DNA of 64,000 nt from an uncultured Clostridia bacterium. GTDB lineage: Bacteria > Bacillota > Clostridia > TANB77 > CAG-508. Positions 29,840 through 38,895 of this stretch are shown here, in pieces; the stretch's first letter is position 1; every line of letters begins with the position of its first letter. The translations under genes were made by a program, and so were the position numbers. A model generated the notes under the pieces. The model ran no database searches. It saw only the letters and a program-made list of their open reading frames with translations, and was not told where the DNA came from. Location: the NCBI GenBank assembly GCA_904387305.1, contig CAJFLB010000011.1:10156-74155 (forward strand), in the 5' to 3' direction.

Positions 29840-29959
29840 TTAAAATATCCTTTCAAAATTCATAATCATACATATATATTATCCTACAAAATAGCGAAAA
29901 AAACAAGACTTTTAGCGAAATTTATCTACTTTTTTATAGTGAAAGTCTAATAACTATAA

Positions 29960-30215
29960 AACACGAAACGCGAGGGAGGAAGTTTCTCCTTTGCAAGTTG
30001 GGTGATAAACACCCGACACATGGATAGCTACTATAGAGAACACAATCACTACTATGCGATTGGGAGAAAGCCGGAGAATACCAGGAGAATTCCAAATTGG
30101 AGTTGGAACCAAGCCAGATCGTGAGTATCACGAAACTGGCCAGGCCTTCAGTTTGACTCCAGAAAAACAGAAAACGTCACTATGCGGTGGCGTTTTCTAC
30201 TTTTCTGGGGTTAAA
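29960..30215. ncRNA. candidate structured RNA of unknown class (G+C-rich island), strand unresolved
   Basis: Local hairpins: GUUGGGUG-AUAAA-CACCCGAC (29996-30016), GCCAG-AU-CGUGA-GUA-UCACG-AAA-CUGGC (30112-30139), and ccagaaaaacagaaaacg...cgttttctacttttctgg (30159-30207). Tandem GGAGAAnnCC repeated three times (30061-30091). No credible ORF or RBS. Confidence 0.4.
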
Positions 30216-30224
30216 CATGAACAT

Positions 30225-30250
30225 TAAAAAAGGAACTAAGTTCCCTTTTT
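30225..30250. terminator. bidirectional terminator
   Basis: aaaaaaggaact-aa-gttccctttttc. Confidence 0.7.
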
Positions 30251-31381: not shown

Positions 31382-33223
31382 TTATTCAACTGTAACAGAT
31401 TTTGCTAAGTTTCTTGGTTTATCAACATCTAATCCTTTTTCCTTTGAAATATAATATGATAATAATTGTAAAGGAATAATTGATAAGATTGGTGAGATAT
31501 ATGGGCTAGTTTTAGGAATTTCTAATACAATATCAAACATAGATTTATCAATTTTTTGATTTGTAACAATAAATGTTTTAGCTCCACGAGTGATAACTTC
31601 TTGAAGATTGCTAACAGTTTTTTCAACTAATGTTGGTTCTGTCATAATTCCTACAACGGTTACATCTTTTTCAATTAAAGCAATAGCACCATGTTTTAAT
31701 TCGCCGGCGGCATAACTTTCTGAGTGAATATATGAAATTTCTTTTAATTTTAAAGAACCTTCTTTAGCAACAGTTTCATCTATCCCTCTACCAATAAAGA
31801 AAACATCTTTTTCTTGATAAATTTCTTTTGCAAAATCTCTAATTTTATCTTCTAGTGTTAAACAATCCTCAATTTGTCTAGGTAAATCTAAAATTTCCTT
31901 TTTTAATTCATATAACATTTCAGAATTTTTTTCTAGTATTTCTGCAAAATAAATAGCTAATATAACAATTAAAACAACTTGTGAAGTATATGCTTTTGTA
32001 GAAGCGACTGCAATTTCTGGTCCTGCGTGTGTATAAATAGAATAATCTGCTTCTCTTGTAATAGAACTTCCTATAACATTGGAAATAGCAAGTGTTTTAG
32101 CACCTTTTTGTTTTGATAATTTTAATGCAGCAATCGTATCTGCGGTTTCTCCAGATTGAGAAATAAAGATACATAAAGTTTTATCATCAATTAATGGATC
32201 TCTATATCTAAATTCAGAAGCAATATCTACTTCAGTTGGAATTCTACAAAGTTTTTCGATAATATTTTTTCCTGCTAATCCAGCATGCATAGCTGTACCA
32301 CAAGCGACAATGTAGATTTTATTTAAACTTGATAAATATTCTTTTGTGAATTTTAATTCATCAAATTCACATTTTGAGTTTTGGCTAAACTTAGCTCCTA
32401 TGGTTTCACGAATAGCTGTTGGTTGTTCATGAATTTCTTTTAGCATAAAATCTTCATAACCATTTTTTTCACTGCTAGCAGCATCCCATTCAATACTTTG
32501 TGTCTTTTTGTCTACTTTATTTAAATCTTTATCATAAAATTCAGCAGAATCTCTTGATAAAAATACATATTCAAAATCATTTAAAAGATAGAAGTTTCTT
32601 GTAAATGATAAGATAGCAGGAATGTCTGAAGAAATATAATTTTCATCAATTCCTTTTCCAATAACTAAAGGACTATCTTTTCTAACAACAATCATATTGT
32701 TAGGAAAATCTTTACAAATAATTTCTAAAGCAAAACTTCCTTTTAAATCATTACAAGCATTTTTTACTGCTGTTAAAAATTTCATTTTTCCCGTTTCTTT
32801 TGATTCTTTTGTATAATAATAATGAATTAGATTTGGCACAATTTCTGTATCTGTATCAGAATAAAATTTATATCCATTATCTACTAAAAATTTCTTTAAT
32901 TCATTATAATTTTCAATAATACCATTATGAACAACACTAAATGATTTTGAATTATCTTGATGAGGGTGTGCATTTTCTTTAGATGGTTTTCCATGTGTTG
33001 CCCATCTTGTATGTGCAATACCAATCGTACCTTTTAAATCATCAATTCCTTTTATATCATATAAATTTTTTACTCTTCCTTTATCTTTCATAACAACCAA
33101 ACCTTCTGGTTCAATTGTTGAAATACCTGCAGAGTCATAACCTCTGTATTCCAATCTTAAAAGTCCATTGATTAAAATTGGACTTGCTTTTTGTTTTCCT
33201 ATATAACCTACAATTCCACACAT
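31382..33223 (-). CDS. glmS: glutamine--fructose-6-phosphate aminotransferase (isomerizing)
   Basis: The N-terminus MCGIVGYIG requires a start at 33223 after RBS GGAGGA. Two SIS domains; C-terminal KPRNLAKSVTVE. Confidence 0.95.
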   Translation of the reverse strand: MCGIVGYIGKQKASPILINGLLRLEYRGYDSAGISTIEPEGLVVMKDKGRVKNLYDIKGIDDLKGTIGIAHTRWATHGKPSKENAHPHQDNSKSFSVVHNGIIENYNELKKFLVDNGYKFYSDTDTEIVPNLIHYYYTKESKETGKMKFLTAVKNACNDLKGSFALEIICKDFPNNMIVVRKDSPLVIGKGIDENYISSDIPAILSFTRNFYLLNDFEYVFLSRDSAEFYDKDLNKVDKKTQSIEWDAASSEKNGYEDFMLKEIHEQPTAIRETIGAKFSQNSKCEFDELKFTKEYLSSLNKIYIVACGTAMHAGLAGKNIIEKLCRIPTEVDIASEFRYRDPLIDDKTLCIFISQSGETADTIAALKLSKQKGAKTLAISNVIGSSITREADYSIYTHAGPEIAVASTKAYTSQVVLIVILAIYFAEILEKNSEMLYELKKEILDLPRQIEDCLTLEDKIRDFAKEIYQEKDVFFIGRGIDETVAKEGSLKLKEISYIHSESYAAGELKHGAIALIEKDVTVVGIMTEPTLVEKTVSNLQEVITRGAKTFIVTNQKIDKSMFDIVLEIPKTSPYISPILSIIPLQLLSYYISKEKGLDVDKPRNLAKSVTVE

Positions 33224-33344
33224 AATATAAATCCTCCATTCATGCAATATTTAAAATTGCTTAATATTTATTTTTAATTATATATAAATTTATCTCTAAC
33301 TTATCAAAGAAAGAGATTGTTGGAATTAAAGGTATGCAAATAAA

Positions 33345-33495
33345 ACCTATATGTATTGACCTTTGTTACAGTATTGCTACTGCTCTTTAATCAATACTTA
33401 TGACCATAAGTGAAAGCCATCAGAGCATCCGCCGAATCTTTCGATAACTCTGAACCTCGTCAACACCCTCAAAAGAGTGTCCAGGCGCTATATAT
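33345..33495 (-). promoter_or_regulatory. glmS ribozyme (GlcN6P-dependent self-cleaving leader)
   Basis: The minus strand reads AUAUAUAGCGCCUGGACACUCUUUUGAGGGUGUUGACGAGGUUCAGAGUUAUCGAAAGAUUCGGCGGAUGCUCUGAUGG. This contains the conserved AGCGCC, GACGAGG, AUCGAA and UUCGGCGGAUGC blocks, directly upstream of glmS. Confidence 0.85.
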
Positions 33496-33626
33496 GAACG
33501 AAATATTGCCCTCCTTTCAAAATATTTTCTTGCATACTTTTAATTTACTGTTATTATATTACACTAAAATGGAAAAATAAGCAAGTCCTGGTTAAAAAAT
33601 TTTATTTTTCCAAAAAAGTATCAAAC

Positions 33627-33655
33627 TTGAAAAAGTAAGTAAAAGGTGATATAAT
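33627..33655 (+). promoter_or_regulatory. strong sigma-A promoter (extended -10) driving the 33.66-34.02 kb RNA
   Basis: TTGAAA (33627-32), 17-nt spacer ending TGa, TATAAT (33650-55). Confidence 0.6.
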
Positions 33656-33793
33656 ATAATATGTACAACCCAAAGCGGTTGTAGTACATTGAAAAATAGG
33701 TGCATTGCACCTCATATAAACTGAGGCTGTCTTTGGCCTATTTTTCTTTGTGCAACTAATGATTTAGCCTACAATAAAAAAGGAGGAAAAAGC

Positions 33794-33928
33794 ATGGCTA
33801 AAGAATTGAGAAGTTTACTTGAAATTATTGGCGAGGACGGAATTTTAGGACTGGATTCTATTGACGATCCAGCAGATTCCGAAGACTTCCAGAACCAGGA
33901 ATCCTGGGGAATAGAGTCAAGCCAGTAA
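33794..33928 (+). CDS. 44-aa acidic small ORF embedded in a structured RNA
   Basis: The perfect RBS AAAGGAGGAAAAAGC precedes the ATG. Product: MAKELRSLLEIIGEDGILGLDSIDDPADSEDFQNQESWGIESSQ. Codons are unusually G/C-ending for this genome. Not in the ORF track (below the length cutoff). Confidence 0.45.
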   Translation: MAKELRSLLEIIGEDGILGLDSIDDPADSEDFQNQESWGIESSQ

Positions 33929-33987
33929 CTGACTGGCAACTTGCTCATTCGCAGGTGCCAGTGCCTCAGTTTGTATGTGAAGAAAAA

Positions 33988-34021
33988 GCAAGTTGCCCCC
34001 ATTTGGGTAACTTGCTTTTTT
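33988..34021 (+). terminator. rho-independent terminator with an upstream competitor (anti-terminator) sequence
   Basis: gcaagttgccc-ccattt-gggtaacttgc plus a T-run. The 5' half is also perfectly complementary to ggcaacttgc at 33935-33944. Confidence 0.7.
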
Positions 34022-34024
34022 CTT

Positions 34025-34176
34025 ATGGTATAGGAAAAATCGCTTTTTCCTATACCATAAAAAACAACATTGCACAGAAAAATTGCATAGCAATTTTTCG
34101 CGTCGACAAATCTTTACGCTTTATATATAGTTAAATTAGAAAAGTAGAGAAAAGTTCTCGCGAAGCGAGATTTGTC
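34025..34176. repeat. family B intergenic repeat, copy 2 (rearranged modules)
   Basis: Hairpin atggtataggaaaaatcgctttttcctataccat, then an inverted partial module (cgtcgacaaatct), then atatatagttaaattagaaaagtagagaaaagttctcgcgaagcgagatttgtc, almost identical to 26356-26412. Confidence 0.75.
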
Positions 34177-34219
34177 CTTGTTCTAAAAAAGATTGAAAAT
34201 ATAAAACAGTTTATATATA

Positions 34220-35125
34220 ATGCAATTAGTTACAAAAAACAAAAATATGAAAGGTAATAAAAATATGGACATAGAATTTCAAGAATTTTTAAATAAAGAT
34301 ATTGGATATGGCAATACATTAAAAAATAAAAAAATGAAATTGTTAAATGAGATAAAAGAAAGTATCAAAAAAGACAAACAATTTCTTGAACAAGCAACGG
34401 ATATAGATTTCAAAAAATGGAAAAAGAAAATTGATTTTGATATATTTTCTAACATTATTGATGAATATATAGAAACGGAAAAAAAGAATCATACCGCAAT
34501 GCTAGAAGAAGGAAACTCTCAAATAGAAAAAATAGTGATAAGCTATTATGGAAATCCATATGTGACATTTATTTTATGCATTCAAGCAATTATCAATCAA
34601 AAGCAATTATTATTAGAAGCAGGAGAATTTATGCTATCTACTAATACTTTTATTATCAATATGATAAATCAAATATTACAAGAAAATCACCTTCCTAAAT
34701 TGCTGACACATTGTATAGAAATTGTAGAAGAAAAATCCATAATTGAAAAAGAAATAAAAACAATCATTATTGGTGCTACTCAAAACAAAGCAAAATATTT
34801 AGGAAAATATATTTACATACCATATAATAATTATATCATTTATTGTGTAGATGAAGAATTAGAAGAATTAAGTAACAGCATTTATGATTATGCCTTTAAT
34901 AATTTTTTTGAAGCAGAAGTTTTATTCGAAGAAGATATAGAAGAAGCCATCGAGATAATAAATCTTAAAAAAGATTGTATTGCAGTAATATTAACAAAAG
35001 ATATAAATTTACAAAATTTGTTTAAAGAAAGAATACAAAATAAATTATATATTAATGAAAATCCATTTGTAAAAGAAGAAATCAATATTCCTGTGAATTG
35101 TTTAGAAATTAAGAAAGAGAAGTAA
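34220..35125 (+). CDS. truncated, degenerate ProA/aldehyde-dehydrogenase-like protein (probable pseudoenzyme)
   Basis: [32 protein letters not shown] parallels ProA [48 protein letters not shown] ... LYINENPF parallels AI.HIN.YGS.HT.AI.T ... VYVNASTRF. The catalytic Cys region is missing. The start is uncertain (34220, 34247 or 34265). Confidence 0.4.
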   Translation: [301 protein letters not shown]

Positions 35126-35985: not shown

Positions 35986-38895
35986 ATGAAACGTTTAGAT
36001 GAAATATCAATTGAAGAAATGGAGAGAGTTTGTAGATTACAAATTTTGAAAACGGATCTTATATCTGTCATAAAACCAGAAAAAAGACAAGAAGTTCTTT
36101 CAAAGTACTCAAAATTTGAAAGACGTGAAAAACGTAAAAATCAGAATGACTATTTAAATGACGGTATATCAAGATTTTTAGTTGAAGGCGAAAAGAACAA
36201 TAAAAGTGAACGTGATATTGTTACACAATTTTTAATAGAAAATGAAGGAGCTGTTGATAAAGGAAATGTATTGTTAATTACTTTGAAAAAATATTTAAAC
36301 AGCAAAGATGCATTAAATGATAGAAATCATCCATTACACAACACATATATGAAAGAAAAGGAAAGAATTGAAGAAGCTTTAGGAAGAACAGAAGTGATGG
36401 CAGAAGATATTTTGAGAGATGAAGATATTGTTGTTTCTCGAGTGATAAAAAATTTAGAGGAAAAGTACTATTCAGTACAAGTGCTTATGAGTAAAGAAAT
36501 CGTAGATAAAATACCTTTGCCAGGTGAAAGAAAAAGAGAAAGAGAATCAAAAAAAGTAATCAATGCATTACCTAATAAAGCACTTTTAATAGCAGTATTA
36601 ATAGGAAATGAAAGTATGGCAGATAAAGACATATATAAAGTTCCAAATTTAGGACGAAATATTTTGGATACTACTTTAGAAAATGCGGTAGTAGAAGAAA
36701 TTATAACTCCTGGACTAATAGAAAAGTTTCAGAATAGTCTCAAAGAATATTCAACCAATTATATAACTAATGAAATTCAACCAGTTGTCAAGAAATCATT
36801 TGCAGGCATTGAAAAATACATAGATATGGATAAAATGTGTTTAACAGCATGTGTGGAAATCATTAAAGCATCAGAAAGTGGACAATTTATTTTTACAGAT
36901 GGAGAATGGGAAGAAAATAAAAAAGCGCATGAAAAAGATGCGTATTTAGGAGCGGAAGAATATTTATCAGATTATTATGCAGCGATAAAGGATAAGGAAG
37001 TAGAAGTTGTTTTTAACGGACAAAACTTTACAACAGAAGATATTAAGAGAGTAATGGTGAACTATATAGATGGAAGATATATGTCACGTCCTTTCGTAAC
37101 AAGTCTTATTGAATTAATTATGTTTGGTGATAAACAAGTATCAGATATTACAGAGAAACAATTGGAACGTATTAGAGAAGTTTTAATTGAAGGTAACGGG
37201 AATATGATAATAGAAGATTTAAAAAGAATGATAGAAAAAGGGTTATTAGATGAGACAACCGTTTTACAATTATATGAAAATAGAAAACTTAGTTTAAATG
37301 ACATTCACGAAGTAAAAGAAATGTTACATTTAGAAGATAAGATAACACCTAAATTTATCTTACAACAGTTGGATGAATTAATGACGATTGACAAAAAAGA
37401 TGATCAATATGAAAAAGAAACTATCAAAAGGTATATAGATTTATACAAAGAATTGTATTTAGAAGGAAAATCAGAAGAGGAGTTAGAAAAAGCAGGAAAA
37501 GCATTAATTGAGGAGATTGAAAAAGAACAACAAAAAGATGAAGAAAAAACAGAAGAGCAAAAGCAAGAAGGAATCTTACAAAATAAATTATTATCTGAAA
37601 AAACTTATGCAGTTTTGGCTTCTAAAGGAGTAGTAAAACCAGAAAATCTTATGCATATGTATCAAAAAGATGTTGTTCAATTGGAAACTTTACAACAATT
37701 GAAACAAGAAAATGTTTCTTTTGATAATTTAGATATAGAACAACAAATCATTGATAGTTATATGAAAATAAGAGAAGAAAAAAATCCAGATGACCAAAAA
37801 TTAAAGAAATATATTACTTTATATAAAACTTTACAATTAAAAGGACTATCAGAAAATGATAGAGCAGAAGGAGCAGATGAATTTATTGTTAAACTTGGTG
37901 ATAGAATAGAAACGGATATACAAGAAGGAAAACAAACAAGAGAATTTGGAGCAGAAGATAGAAGACAACTATATGAATTAGGTGCGATTCCAATTGATAC
38001 AGTGGTACTTTGGGGAGAAAAAGAAGAAATTATTGATTTATTAAAAAGTAAAACATTACTTCCCAAAGATATCAAAAAATTGTATCAAGATAGGAGAATC
38101 ATATTGCATGATTTTCAAGAAATTATGGAAGCACCAGATATAGAAGTGGGGCAAAAACTTCATCTAGTTAATACAGTATTTTCTAGTCATGAAGTTGCTG
38201 AGATAAGACAAGATTTAATGGCAAGGATAAAAGGACTAAAAAATACAGCCAGTTCAGAAAAGACAAAGGGAAAACAAAAAAGTGCAGATAAAAAAGAAGA
38301 AAATACAAATAAATATAATGATAGAAATCGATATATCTTTGACACAGCAGAAAGATATAATGCTTGGATAGAATCAGACGAAGATGTTAGGATGTCACTT
38401 TTTGATGATGGACATGTGGCATTCCAATTGCCAAATGTAAAAGATGGTATTGTTGTAATAGAAGAATTGTGGAAAACAAAAACTGTTGAAGAAGATGGCA
38501 TAAAAGAAAAACAATTAATAGACAAGTATGGAGCCAATGGATATGTATTGACAATAGAGGAATATGAAAAATATAAAGACAGATTTATAACAACAGATAA
38601 TAGAATAAAAAGATCAAAATTAATTGAACTTGTGCAGGAACTTCCTAGTTTAGAGGAAGAAGGAATTTTAAGAGAATTGCTTCATACAAAAAATAAATAT
38701 ACCATAGATGTCCAAACATTATTAGGAATACCAAAGAGTTTGGCAGGCGCGAGAACAGAAGGACAAAAAGAAAAAGCTCTAAAAACATTGGATGAGAGTA
38801 CAGAATATACTCCAGAGGAAAAGGAAAGAATAAGAAAAATACATACCATGTGGGAGCAAGTAAGAGAAAGCAGAGATCATTATAGAGAGCAATAG
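35986..38895 (+). CDS. large (969 aa) Lys/Glu-rich helical-repeat protein of unknown function
   Basis: Good RBS (GTGAGGTG). No enzymatic motif was seen. Internal repeats, e.g. IKRYIDLYKELYLEGKSEEELEKAG versus LKKYITLYKTLQLKGLSENDRAEGA. Confidence 0.5.
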   Translation: MKRLDEISIEEMERVCRLQILKTDLISVIKPEKRQEVLSKYSKFERREKRKNQNDYLNDGISRFLVEGEKNNKSERDIVTQFLIENEGAVDKGNVLLITLKKYLNSKDALNDRNHPLHNTYMKEKERIEEALGRTEVMAEDILRDEDIVVSRVIKNLEEKYYSVQVLMSKEIVDKIPLPGERKRERESKKVINALPNKALLIAVLIGNESMADKDIYKVPNLGRNILDTTLENAVVEEIITPGLIEKFQNSLKEYSTNYITNEIQPVVKKSFAGIEKYIDMDKMCLTACVEIIKASESGQFIFTDGEWEENKKAHEKDAYLGAEEYLSDYYAAIKDKEVEVVFNGQNFTTEDIKRVMVNYIDGRYMSRPFVTSLIELIMFGDKQVSDITEKQLERIREVLIEGNGNMIIEDLKRMIEKGLLDETTVLQLYENRKLSLNDIHEVKEMLHLEDKITPKFILQQLDELMTIDKKDDQYEKETIKRYIDLYKELYLEGKSEEELEKAGKALIEEIEKEQQKDEEKTEEQKQEGILQNKLLSEKTYAVLASKGVVKPENLMHMYQKDVVQLETLQQLKQENVSFDNLDIEQQIIDSYMKIREEKNPDDQKLKKYITLYKTLQLKGLSENDRAEGADEFIVKLGDRIETDIQEGKQTREFGAEDRRQLYELGAIPIDTVVLWGEKEEIIDLLKSKTLLPKDIKKLYQDRRIILHDFQEIMEAPDIEVGQKLHLVNTVFSSHEVAEIRQDLMARIKGLKNTASSEKTKGKQKSADKKEENTNKYNDRNRYIFDTAERYNAWIESDEDVRMSLFDDGHVAFQLPNVKDGIVVIEELWKTKTVEEDGIKEKQLIDKYGANGYVLTIEEYEKYKDRFITTDNRIKRSKLIELVQELPSLEEEGILRELLHTKNKYTIDVQTLLGIPKSLAGARTEGQKEKALKTLDESTEYTPEEKERIRKIHTMWEQVRESRDHYREQ

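Follow-up and report, generated by a model that had tools for sequence, protein, structure and literature searches.

A small acidic-protein gene of uncultured gut Clostridia lies within a conserved untranslated frame with predicted pairing of the mRNA ends

Introduction

Self-pairing of the ends of a bacterial mRNA has, to our knowledge, been studied experimentally in few cases, namely hok, icaR and hbs. A locus with predicted pairing of this kind is described here. It lies at positions 33627-34021 (plus strand) of a 64,000-nucleotide (nt) stretch of DNA from an uncultured Clostridia bacterium (GenBank assembly GCA_904387305.1, contig CAJFLB010000011.1, positions 10,156 to 74,155); the whole stretch is called the window. 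The locus carries a 44-codon open reading frame (ORF) for an acidic protein between two structured untranslated regions (UTRs). In hok mRNA, of the hok/Sok system of plasmid R1 and its chromosomal homologues, a 5′-3′ helix (tac/fbi) closes the full-length RNA, an upstream box sequesters the Shine-Dalgarno (SD) sequence, and the fold of the nascent RNA is another, metastable one (PMC9841398). In the hbs mRNA of Bacillus subtilis, a 14-bp helix that joins the 5′ UTR to the 3′ UTR modulates the access of a ribonuclease, RNase Y (PMC5737220). [quoted passage not shown]

The hbs message, which encodes a highly expressed protein, is like the one described here a Firmicute small-protein mRNA with a structured 5′ UTR, and the helix predicted here, of 15 bp and just upstream of the terminator, is of comparable length. 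The proteins and the sequences are unrelated, and masking of the SD is not part of what is proposed for the hbs pairing. A UCCCCUG motif of icaR binds the SD itself and makes a substrate for RNase III; the partner of the 3′ box considered here is a leader hairpin that lies ~55 nt upstream of the SD, masking would be indirect, and the 3′ UTR is short (93 nt). The elements of hok have counterparts in the model proposed below: a leader box with a 3′ box, a U-rich strand with the SD, and the nascent hairpins H1 or P2/P3. Unlike hok, the product is acidic and hydrophilic and not a membrane toxin, there is no sequence or Rfam similarity, neither a Sok-like antisense RNA nor a mok-like overlapping frame was found at this locus, and activation of the message by 3′ trimming is hypothetical here.

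We propose that the locus is a monocistronic gene for an acidic protein inside a conserved UTR frame, with fold-back control of the hok/hbs/icaR type, a reading that we hold about as firmly as we doubt it. An earlier note on this DNA, made from the letters alone, had seen here a strongly promoted structured RNA with a small ORF and a terminator switch. All the sequence features that it listed were found where it had placed them.

Results

The leader and the 3′ UTR carry complementary boxes

A perfect 10-mer pairing that encloses the ORF (33718-27 with 33963-72) had been pointed out earlier. The pairing is conserved and is longer than first described, extending to 15 bp with one G.U between a leader box, CAUAUAAACUGAGGC (33713-33727), and a 3′ box, GCCUCAGUUUGUAUG (33963-33977). 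A helix of this length was reached in 4 of 1000 shuffles when only Watson-Crick pairs were counted, and in 2 of 1000 when G.U was allowed. The longest complementary run was used as the test in place of RNAduplex energies, which were uninformative (large interior loops).

The boxes were compared among homologous loci of relatives (numbered L001 onwards), where the 3′ box also follows a second gene, for a 437-aa protein, described below. Ten distinct pairs of leader box and 3′ box were tabulated, the type of the window being added by hand. Seven one-sided changes were counted by hand, and six of them keep the pairing (A-U to G.U, G-C to G.U or G.U to A-U); the lone exception lies at the end of the helix. 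L028 has GAGGG in the leader and CCCUC in the 3′ box, a compensatory C-G to G-C change. In a distant clade (L041, L044 and L045), the 437-aa homologues are ~41% identical and the genomic context is another one in L041. The two boxes of L041 are unrelated in sequence to those of the window yet complementary to each other (GUUAAUAGAAGCUU with AAGCUUCUAUUAAC, 14 Watson-Crick pairs, 0 of 300 shuffles), and L044 holds a complementary 11-mer (0 of 300 shuffles). The 5′ box of this clade sits in the 5′ strand and apical part of a hairpin resembling H1 (see below). This exchange of both boxes is the strongest evidence for a conserved 5′-3′ helix. Another distant locus, L047, carries an AT-only 9-mer that is no better than shuffles (55 of 300).

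Partition function calculations on 13 homologous transcripts gave the long-range helix a probability of 0.62-1.00, and the fold that contains it was predicted to be ~10-18 kcal/mol more stable than the best fold with the 3′ box blocked. Taken at the level of sequence, these comparisons show that leader box and 3′ box stay complementary through evolution. Conserved pairing between 5′ UTR and 3′ UTR, the mark of end-pairing mRNAs as a mechanistic class and not as a homology family, is thus found at this locus.

The leader hairpin and predicted masking of the SD

Folding of the leader (33663-33765) places a hairpin, P1, at its 5′ end (33664-33683; UACAACC, 33664-70, with GGUUGUA, 33677-83). The sequence of this stem varies in relatives while the hairpin is kept, as seen by eye in GCAAUC/GGUUGC, UGCAAC/GUUGCA and AUAUAUGGC/GUCAUAUAU. 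P1 is followed by a long hairpin, H1 (33684-33753), in which GUACA-UU-GAAAAAUAGGU (33684-701) pairs with GCCUAUUUUUC-UU-UGUGC (33736-53) and CCUCA (33710-14) pairs with UGAGG (33722-26) in an apical stem. H1 is the minimum free energy (MFE) structure of the leader alone (-37.8 kcal/mol, z = -6.15), and the RNAalifold consensus is identical. It is 98.8% paired over 20 leader copies, which are too invariant for covariation statistics. One pair of H1 occurs as U-A, U.G or C-G; the lone C-A cell comes from a shifted row, L026, and becomes C-G when unshifted. In the distant clade, GUACG...CGUAC replaces the GUACA...UGUAC of this clade. The variable pair and this replacement lend the predicted H1 independent support.

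The following course of folding is proposed. The nascent leader would fold locally, into P1, P2 and P3 first, and the U tract behind them may make a weak attenuator. H1 would form next and leave the SD free. Once transcribed, the 3′ box would invade the top of H1 and give the 15-bp 5′-3′ helix. The displaced U-rich 3′ strand of H1, GGCCUAUUUUUCUUU, would then pair with the purine-rich ribosome-binding region. The finished message would be compact, with a hairpin at each end and the ends tied, and would be nuclease-resistant and less translated until the 3′ box is removed or occupied.

The predicted accessibility of the SD (AAGGAGG, 33780-33786, 7 nt ahead of the ATG) was compared with and without the helix in ten short-leader homologues. 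With the helix formed, the SD had an unpaired probability of 0.16-0.74; when the 3′ box was blocked, this became 0.53-0.99. Blocking raised it in 10 of 10 forms, and in 8 of 10 from at most 0.45 to at least 0.84. The SD is masked in these predictions because the opening of H1 frees its U-rich 3′ strand, which pairs with AAGGAGGAAAAA and the first codons. Paired UTR ends would probably stabilise the message and limit its translation.

An attenuator-like fold in the same leader

The leader can also adopt an alternative fold (33698-33749) made of two hairpins, P2 (AGGUGC, 33698-703, with GCACCU, 33707-12) and P3 (AGGCU, 33724-28, with GGCCU, 33735-39), and then AUUUUUCUUU (33740-49). P3 with this U tract was flagged as terminator-like. 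P1, P2 and P3 together are the MFE structure of the nascent leader truncated at 33740. P2 is present in the MFE structures of the nascent leader and of the whole transcript, and not in that of the finished leader alone. Both 5′ hairpins that had been noted earlier are therefore recovered, the AGGUG/CACCU one within the whole-transcript fold. The fold with P2 and P3 is 95% paired across leader copies.

These features raise an alternative, namely that the leader is a genuine attenuator. P2/P3 and the U tract would stop most transcripts, CCUCA/UGAGG would serve as the anti-terminator, and the 3′ box, acting in trans on nascent leaders of its own gene and of the 437-aa gene, would promote read-through by sequestering the 5′ strand of P3. 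A full mRNA or a processed 3′ UTR fragment would then give RNA-mediated positive feedback and couple the small gene to the 437-aa gene. Besides the terminator-like hairpin itself (33724-39, with the U tract behind it), several observations agree with this. P2, the apical hairpin and P3 are mutually exclusive, and both strands are invariant while the loop of P2 ranges from 3 to 8 nt; P1, P2 and P3 make the nascent-leader MFE structure in both cassette types. Both the apical hairpin and the 5′ strand of P3 share nucleotides with the leader box, whose overlap with the 5′ strand of a P3-like hairpin is seen in both clades. Since the same boxes stand on both cassettes, cross-pairing would be possible.

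Several points weigh against an attenuator. P3 is weak (5-6 bp) and is impaired in L012, L039 (GGACU), L026 and L028. An RNA acting in trans would have just ~20 nt of transcription time. The window holds one leader copy in 64 kb, so that the pairing here could only be with itself. The leader resembles the attenuator and riboswitch leaders of Firmicutes in having three short, mutually exclusive helices (P2, apical hairpin and P3) and a U tract behind them, all inside the first 90 nt. It differs from them in its weak hairpin and in that no effector is known for it: no leader peptide, T-box, RAT or other effector module was recognised, and a riboswitch-type ligand-, tRNA- or protein-binding domain finds no Rfam aptamer match and has against it a P2 loop variable in length and sequence. 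We regard the attenuator as doubtful, and fold-back of the finished message is retained as the preferred reading.

The same frame flanks two unrelated ORFs

Relatives show, in their sequences, the same UTR frame around two unrelated ORFs, one for an acidic protein of 39-49 aa and the other for a 437-aa protein. In many of them a second promoter and a further copy of the 5′ leader lie ~470 nt downstream, ahead of the 437-aa gene, which is missing from the window (example, L011 3560-4873; homologues P0027-P0063). This gene is followed by the same 3′ UTR module of hairpin, box and terminator. The order of the cassettes differs: the small gene comes first in L011 and the 437-aa gene first in L022. 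The 437-aa protein gave a confident AlphaFold2 model (predicted local distance difference test score, pLDDT, 85; predicted template modelling score, pTM, 0.69). Foldseek searches of the PDB and BFVD with this model gave no credible match (best E = 0.08 with a template modelling score, TM, of 0.14, and E = 1e-3 with TM 0.16), and a sequence search of the PDB gave no significant match.

The G+C content at third codon positions (GC3) is 0.40 in the 44-codon ORF and 0.10-0.21 in five neighbouring genes, in line with the excess of G/C-ending codons remarked on earlier. The foreign origin that had been offered as one explanation is not borne out in the sense of a recent transfer into this genome. 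GC3 is 0.45 in the 437-aa gene and 0.40 in a 41%-identical homologue, in a locus of 30% G+C. Because both ORFs are G+C-richer than their hosts, the distant homologue included, the odd codon usage is taken as a long-standing trait of the frame genes and not as a mark of recent transfer.

The boxes could instead be inverted repeats at the level of DNA, serving as recombination or mobility sites of an invertible or mobile cassette. Such a role would suit a frame that surrounds two unrelated ORFs, cassettes whose order differs between L011 and L022, a 437-aa cassette that is present or absent among close relatives, ORFs that are both G+C-richer than the host (GC3 0.40-0.45 against 0.10-0.21), and the tyrosine integrase found beyond glmS in some loci. 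The substitutions argue otherwise, as nearly all of them keep the RNA pairing through G.U while making mismatches in DNA. No inverted arrangement was seen among the ~40 loci examined, every copy of the frame has its promoter and terminator oriented as expected, no recombinase is a constant neighbour, and viral contigs, phage records and plasmid records gave no matches. DNA-level repeats are thus quite improbable, and the boxes are read further as partners in RNA.

The contigs with the small gene come from metagenomes. A scan for the leader pattern over one genome per species returned 9 stretches, all from metagenome-assembled genomes labelled uncultured Clostridia, Eubacteriales or Bacillota. 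On this record the small gene is specific to one lineage, namely a clade of AT-rich, uncultured gut Clostridia. The synteny is conserved in the order YaaL, BofA, (HAD), glmS (minus strand) and the small gene, followed by a variable neighbour, which is the 437-aa gene under a promoter and leader of its own, a gene for 286-301 aa accompanied by hpt, or a 958-aa gene.

A second conserved 5′ UTR module was observed in relatives (L011 3440-3562; also L008, L022, L025-L029, L031, L041, L044 and L045). It stands upstream of the 437-aa family and, in some species, also of the small gene, and is not in the window. Its order is GCCC, a hairpin, a long AU-rich hairpin with the loop UUAGCC, UGGGAACGAAC, a hairpin, GUAGGGAAAGGA and AUGGC. 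Compensatory changes are found at 11 of the 20 pairs of its RNAalifold consensus, and its 5′ CCC is able to pair with the GGG of an SD-like AGGGAAAGGA. With no matching Rfam family, it is a candidate for a new cis-regulatory RNA. The window retains only a UUUAGCC piece of it (33763-33769), which appears to be a remnant of the loop. This piece is complementary to GGCUAAA at codons 1-3 (33796-802), with a predicted local hairpin of -9.5 kcal/mol; its covariation with the start-codon region in relatives is mixed.

The 44-codon ORF is protein-coding

The ORF runs from the ATG at 33794 to the TAA at 33926-28 (33794-33928, plus strand) and encodes the 44-aa acidic protein MAKELRSLLEIIGEDGILGLDSIDDPADSEDFQNQESWGIESSQ; ORF and ribosome-binding site are as first described. 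A peptide search returned 9 clusters at 82-100% identity, and a family-profile search 23 clusters. An exhaustive hidden Markov model (HMM) search of 1.84 billion representative proteins gave 7 representatives at 50% identity and no larger protein that contains the family motif. Pfam, NCBIfam, PHROGs and PADLOC hold no family for the peptide.

Members of the family are 39-49 aa long, and all length differences are in frame. They share an M-A start, the motifs L-x-E-(I/L)-(I/L)-G and (T/I)-L-G-x-(D/N)-S, an acidic middle and, at the C terminus, G-x-(D/E/N)-S-x-x. In codon-aligned comparisons, the ratio of nonsynonymous to synonymous substitution rates (dN/dS) is 0.15-0.37 in the more diverged pairs. 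Changes at first, second and third codon positions number 5/4/18, 3/4/12 and 3/3/11, an excess at the third. All relatives keep start, stop and peptide motifs, and short-leader relatives also keep the SD, while the nucleotide identity of the ORF decays. Because of the low dN/dS, the third-position excess and the restriction to in-frame indels, we conclude from these alignments that the ORF is protein-coding and under purifying selection. The checks of dN/dS and of frame-breaking indels that had been suggested earlier thus agree with each other, and the locus is the unrecognised small-protein gene, of a narrow family, that was one of the roles considered at the time.

Another of those roles was that of a dual-function small RNA. 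In its stronger form, in which the RNA is non-coding or its ORF incidental or secondary, this would fit a highly structured, G+C-rich RNA in an AT-rich genome, an ORF segment that folds better than shuffles (z = -3.0), and the C-terminal two thirds of the ORF, near-invariant in nucleotides among close relatives. The codon-level evidence just given (dN/dS, third-position excess, in-frame indels only, and start, stop, SD and motifs that outlast the nucleotide decay) speaks against an incidental ORF and makes such an RNA very improbable; a role in trans beside coding could still be accommodated.

AlphaFold2 with the family alignment gave a helix at residues 2-12 and a low-confidence remainder without secondary structure (mean pLDDT 64). 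In view of the low confidence outside the short N-terminal helix, the protein is probably largely disordered in this model. The short motifs LG-x-D/N-S and C-terminal G-x-D/E/N-S-x-x suggest that it may act by binding a partner. No hallmarks of a precursor of ribosomally synthesised and post-translationally modified peptides (RiPPs) were found. The scanned neighbours (437, 286, 292, 301, 457 and 969 aa) have no significant Pfam domain except hpt, the domains of genes that flank the homologous loci are limited to glmS, hpt, HAD, BofA and integrase-type ones, with no RiPP-modification enzyme among them, and Cys is absent from the peptide in most members of the family.

The 3′ UTR and the proposed terminator switch

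The 3′ UTR (33929-34021) begins with a hairpin (33933-33961) that pairs CUUGC (33940-44) with GCAGG (33951-55). In the clade of the window, CUGGCA/UGCCAG (33933-38 with 33956-61) extends it to a 12-bp local hairpin. This hairpin is 100% paired and shows covariation from C-G to U-A and from G-C to A-U. An intrinsic terminator (33983-34021) follows, with the core GCAAGUUGCCC/GGGUAACUUGC in a stem of 33983-99 with 34004-20 and then a U run; it is 99.3% paired with two compensatory pairs. Over 13 distinct 3′ UTRs, the local hairpin and terminator together are 99.5% paired with 4 compensatory pairs, and 0 of 500 shuffles reached this covariation.

In the earlier note, a translation-sensing terminator/anti-terminator switch had been put forward, in which 33935-44 would pair with 33988-97 and set read-through into the next gene. 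The complementarity, which begins 7 nt past the stop codon, does exist (10 of 10, and 16 nt at 88%). Over the same 13 3′ UTRs it is only 64.6% paired, and 119 of 500 shuffles were as good, so that covariation upholds the local hairpin and the terminator and not the anti-terminator. A U-to-C change in most close relatives breaks the switch pairing (C x A) and betters the local hairpin (U.G to C-G), and in the clade of the window the segment is held in the 12-bp local hairpin, which is transcribed earlier. The gene downstream has a promoter of its own (34193-34221, consensus score 11/12), and the neighbour varies among relatives (437-aa, 958-aa or 286-301-aa gene). On the failed comparative pairing and the separate promoter, the switch and an attenuator for the downstream gene are rejected; the switch is hardly to be believed. 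Next to no credence is given to a module of the type I toxin-antitoxin kind in which hok-style folding would control the small protein as a toxin. The ORF is small, the 5′ hairpin is stable and the fold-back is predicted to mask the SD as in hok (PMC9841398), but the product, strongly acidic and hydrophilic, lacks a transmembrane segment, a consensus scan, which can miss promoters, found no minus-strand antisense promoter within 33600-34250, and the frame also serves the soluble-looking 437-aa protein.

The transcription unit and its setting

A sigma-A type promoter (33627-33655, plus strand) has TTGAAA at -35 (33627-32), a 17-nt spacer, TG (33647-48) and TATAAT (33650-55). Its consensus score is 11/12 plus the extended -10 TG (TGaTATAAT); the elements are those of the earlier description. 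Matches to the promoter consensus are not rare by themselves here (5 sites against 5.6 expected); this one is kept ahead of every homologous cassette in relatives. Transcription would start at about 33661-63. The segment 33660-34025 (366 nt) has an MFE of -137.8 kcal/mol (z = -8.9), and when the parts are folded separately the leader has z = -6.15, the ORF -3.0 and the 3′ UTR -5.86. Promoter, terminator and folding predictions support an independent, strongly promoted transcription unit that would yield a structured RNA of ~360 nt. A leaderless mini-ORF with its ATG at 33661 (MYNPKRL*) was considered and rejected, as it is not conserved in relatives.

A scan of the whole window with Rfam 15 at the gathering threshold returned only the glmS ribozyme and one tRNA. 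A permissive scan of 33500-34250 gave only sub-threshold hairpin-like models, the best being Phe_leader on the minus strand (30.3 bits against 55), and relatives' loci gave nothing relevant in Rfam. The absence of the RNA from known families thus agrees with the earlier assessment, as does that of the peptide.

The window is AT-rich (~27% G+C), and G+C at the locus rises to 41-49% in 150-nt intervals. Genes of spore-formers (BofA, DUF2508/YaaL and hpt) are present. The locus lies between glmS (31382-33247, minus strand), which is transcribed divergently from the small gene, and a 301-aa gene. A canonical glmS ribozyme occupies the glmS 5′ UTR (33343-33500, minus strand; Rfam, 87.6 bits) and is kept beside the cassette in relatives.

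Relatives conserve, in synteny, the 301-aa gene (34220-35125) and a 969-aa gene (35986-38895), both on the plus strand and without recognisable domain. The 958-aa protein of relatives is the orthologue of the 969-aa protein, at 40% identity. The 301-, 437-, 958- and 969-aa proteins found no family in Pfam, NCBIfam, PHROGs or PADLOC. The label 'ProA-like' previously attached to the 301-aa protein is not upheld, with no Pfam hit and an NCBIfam match to PRK00197 at E = 0.095 (11.4 bits; cut-off 289). A partial complementarity between the leader and the 301-aa gene's promoter and 5′ UTR was taken as chance; the arms are not colinear, are AT-rich and are not conserved in L029.

The terminator is separated from the 301-aa gene's promoter by an insertion of ~160 nt (34024-34183), single-copy in the window. 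It contains a 24-nt inverted repeat at 92% (34016-39 with 34044-67), a second hairpin (34077-86 with 34090-99), a site that resembles a promoter (34103-34131, 10/12) and a hairpin like that of a terminator (34156-70). The window shares this insertion with L001 and the distant relative L023, whereas L002-L006 lack it; it may represent a small mobile element or else a very small RNA gene. Another intergenic island rich in G+C was seen at 29950-30250 (plus strand), upstream of the DUF2508/YaaL gene (42-49% G+C against 15-30% around it). It folds over 244 nt to -85.4 kcal/mol (z = -6.2), with terminator-like hairpins at its end (30169-98 and 30232-44), and matches no Rfam family even at a permissive threshold. 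This island is a candidate for an uncharacterised structured RNA.

Discussion

The proposal that the small gene is controlled by fold-back of its message draws on boxes that keep their complementarity, on a leader hairpin that the 3′ box would open, and on an SD that becomes less accessible in the predicted closed form. Several observations weigh against it. The relatives are few, closely related lineages known from metagenome-assembled genomes. The support for the helix comes mostly from one-sided changes compatible with wobble, with one clean compensatory change, and the exchange of boxes comes from a clade known only for the 437-aa gene. In that clade L045 holds only a partly palindromic 8-mer (64 of 300 shuffles), the distant 437-aa loci L043 and L046 show only AT-only 10-mer complementarity, and L048 and L050 have no box complementarity, though their ORFs look disrupted. 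The leader is near-invariant within the clade of the window, so that covariation cannot tell H1 from P2 and P3. The masking of the SD is an equilibrium thermodynamic prediction, which ignores kinetics, ribosomes and proteins, and the long-leader forms L027 and L029 show little or no change in SD accessibility. The acidic protein, moreover, would be unlike any product known to need fold-back control.

A more far-reaching reading is that the UTRs make up an RNA 'expression frame' that is portable and surrounds two unrelated genes or more, in which the 3′ box silences and stores the finished mRNA in cis by fold-back and anti-terminates the sister leader in trans. This seems to us unlikely. Were it true, the two products would be produced jointly, either in a timed burst or following 3′ processing, and activation-by-processing in the manner of hok would extend to non-toxin genes, in spore-forming gut Clostridia.

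With fold-back control of a monocistronic small-protein gene as the preferred reading, the locus would join the known class of end-pairing mRNAs, and it would be unusual there in having a frame common to two unrelated genes. Since the partner boxes co-vary across clades and the frame is reused for two unrelated genes, it may be argued that the frame itself is the selected regulatory device. The locus adds a lineage-specific small-protein family from uncultured gut Clostridia, and its relatives add a covarying 5′ UTR motif and a 437-aa family without structural relatives. A G+C-rich island in an AT-rich genome may thus be a small protein gene with heavily structured UTRs, and not necessarily a non-coding RNA.

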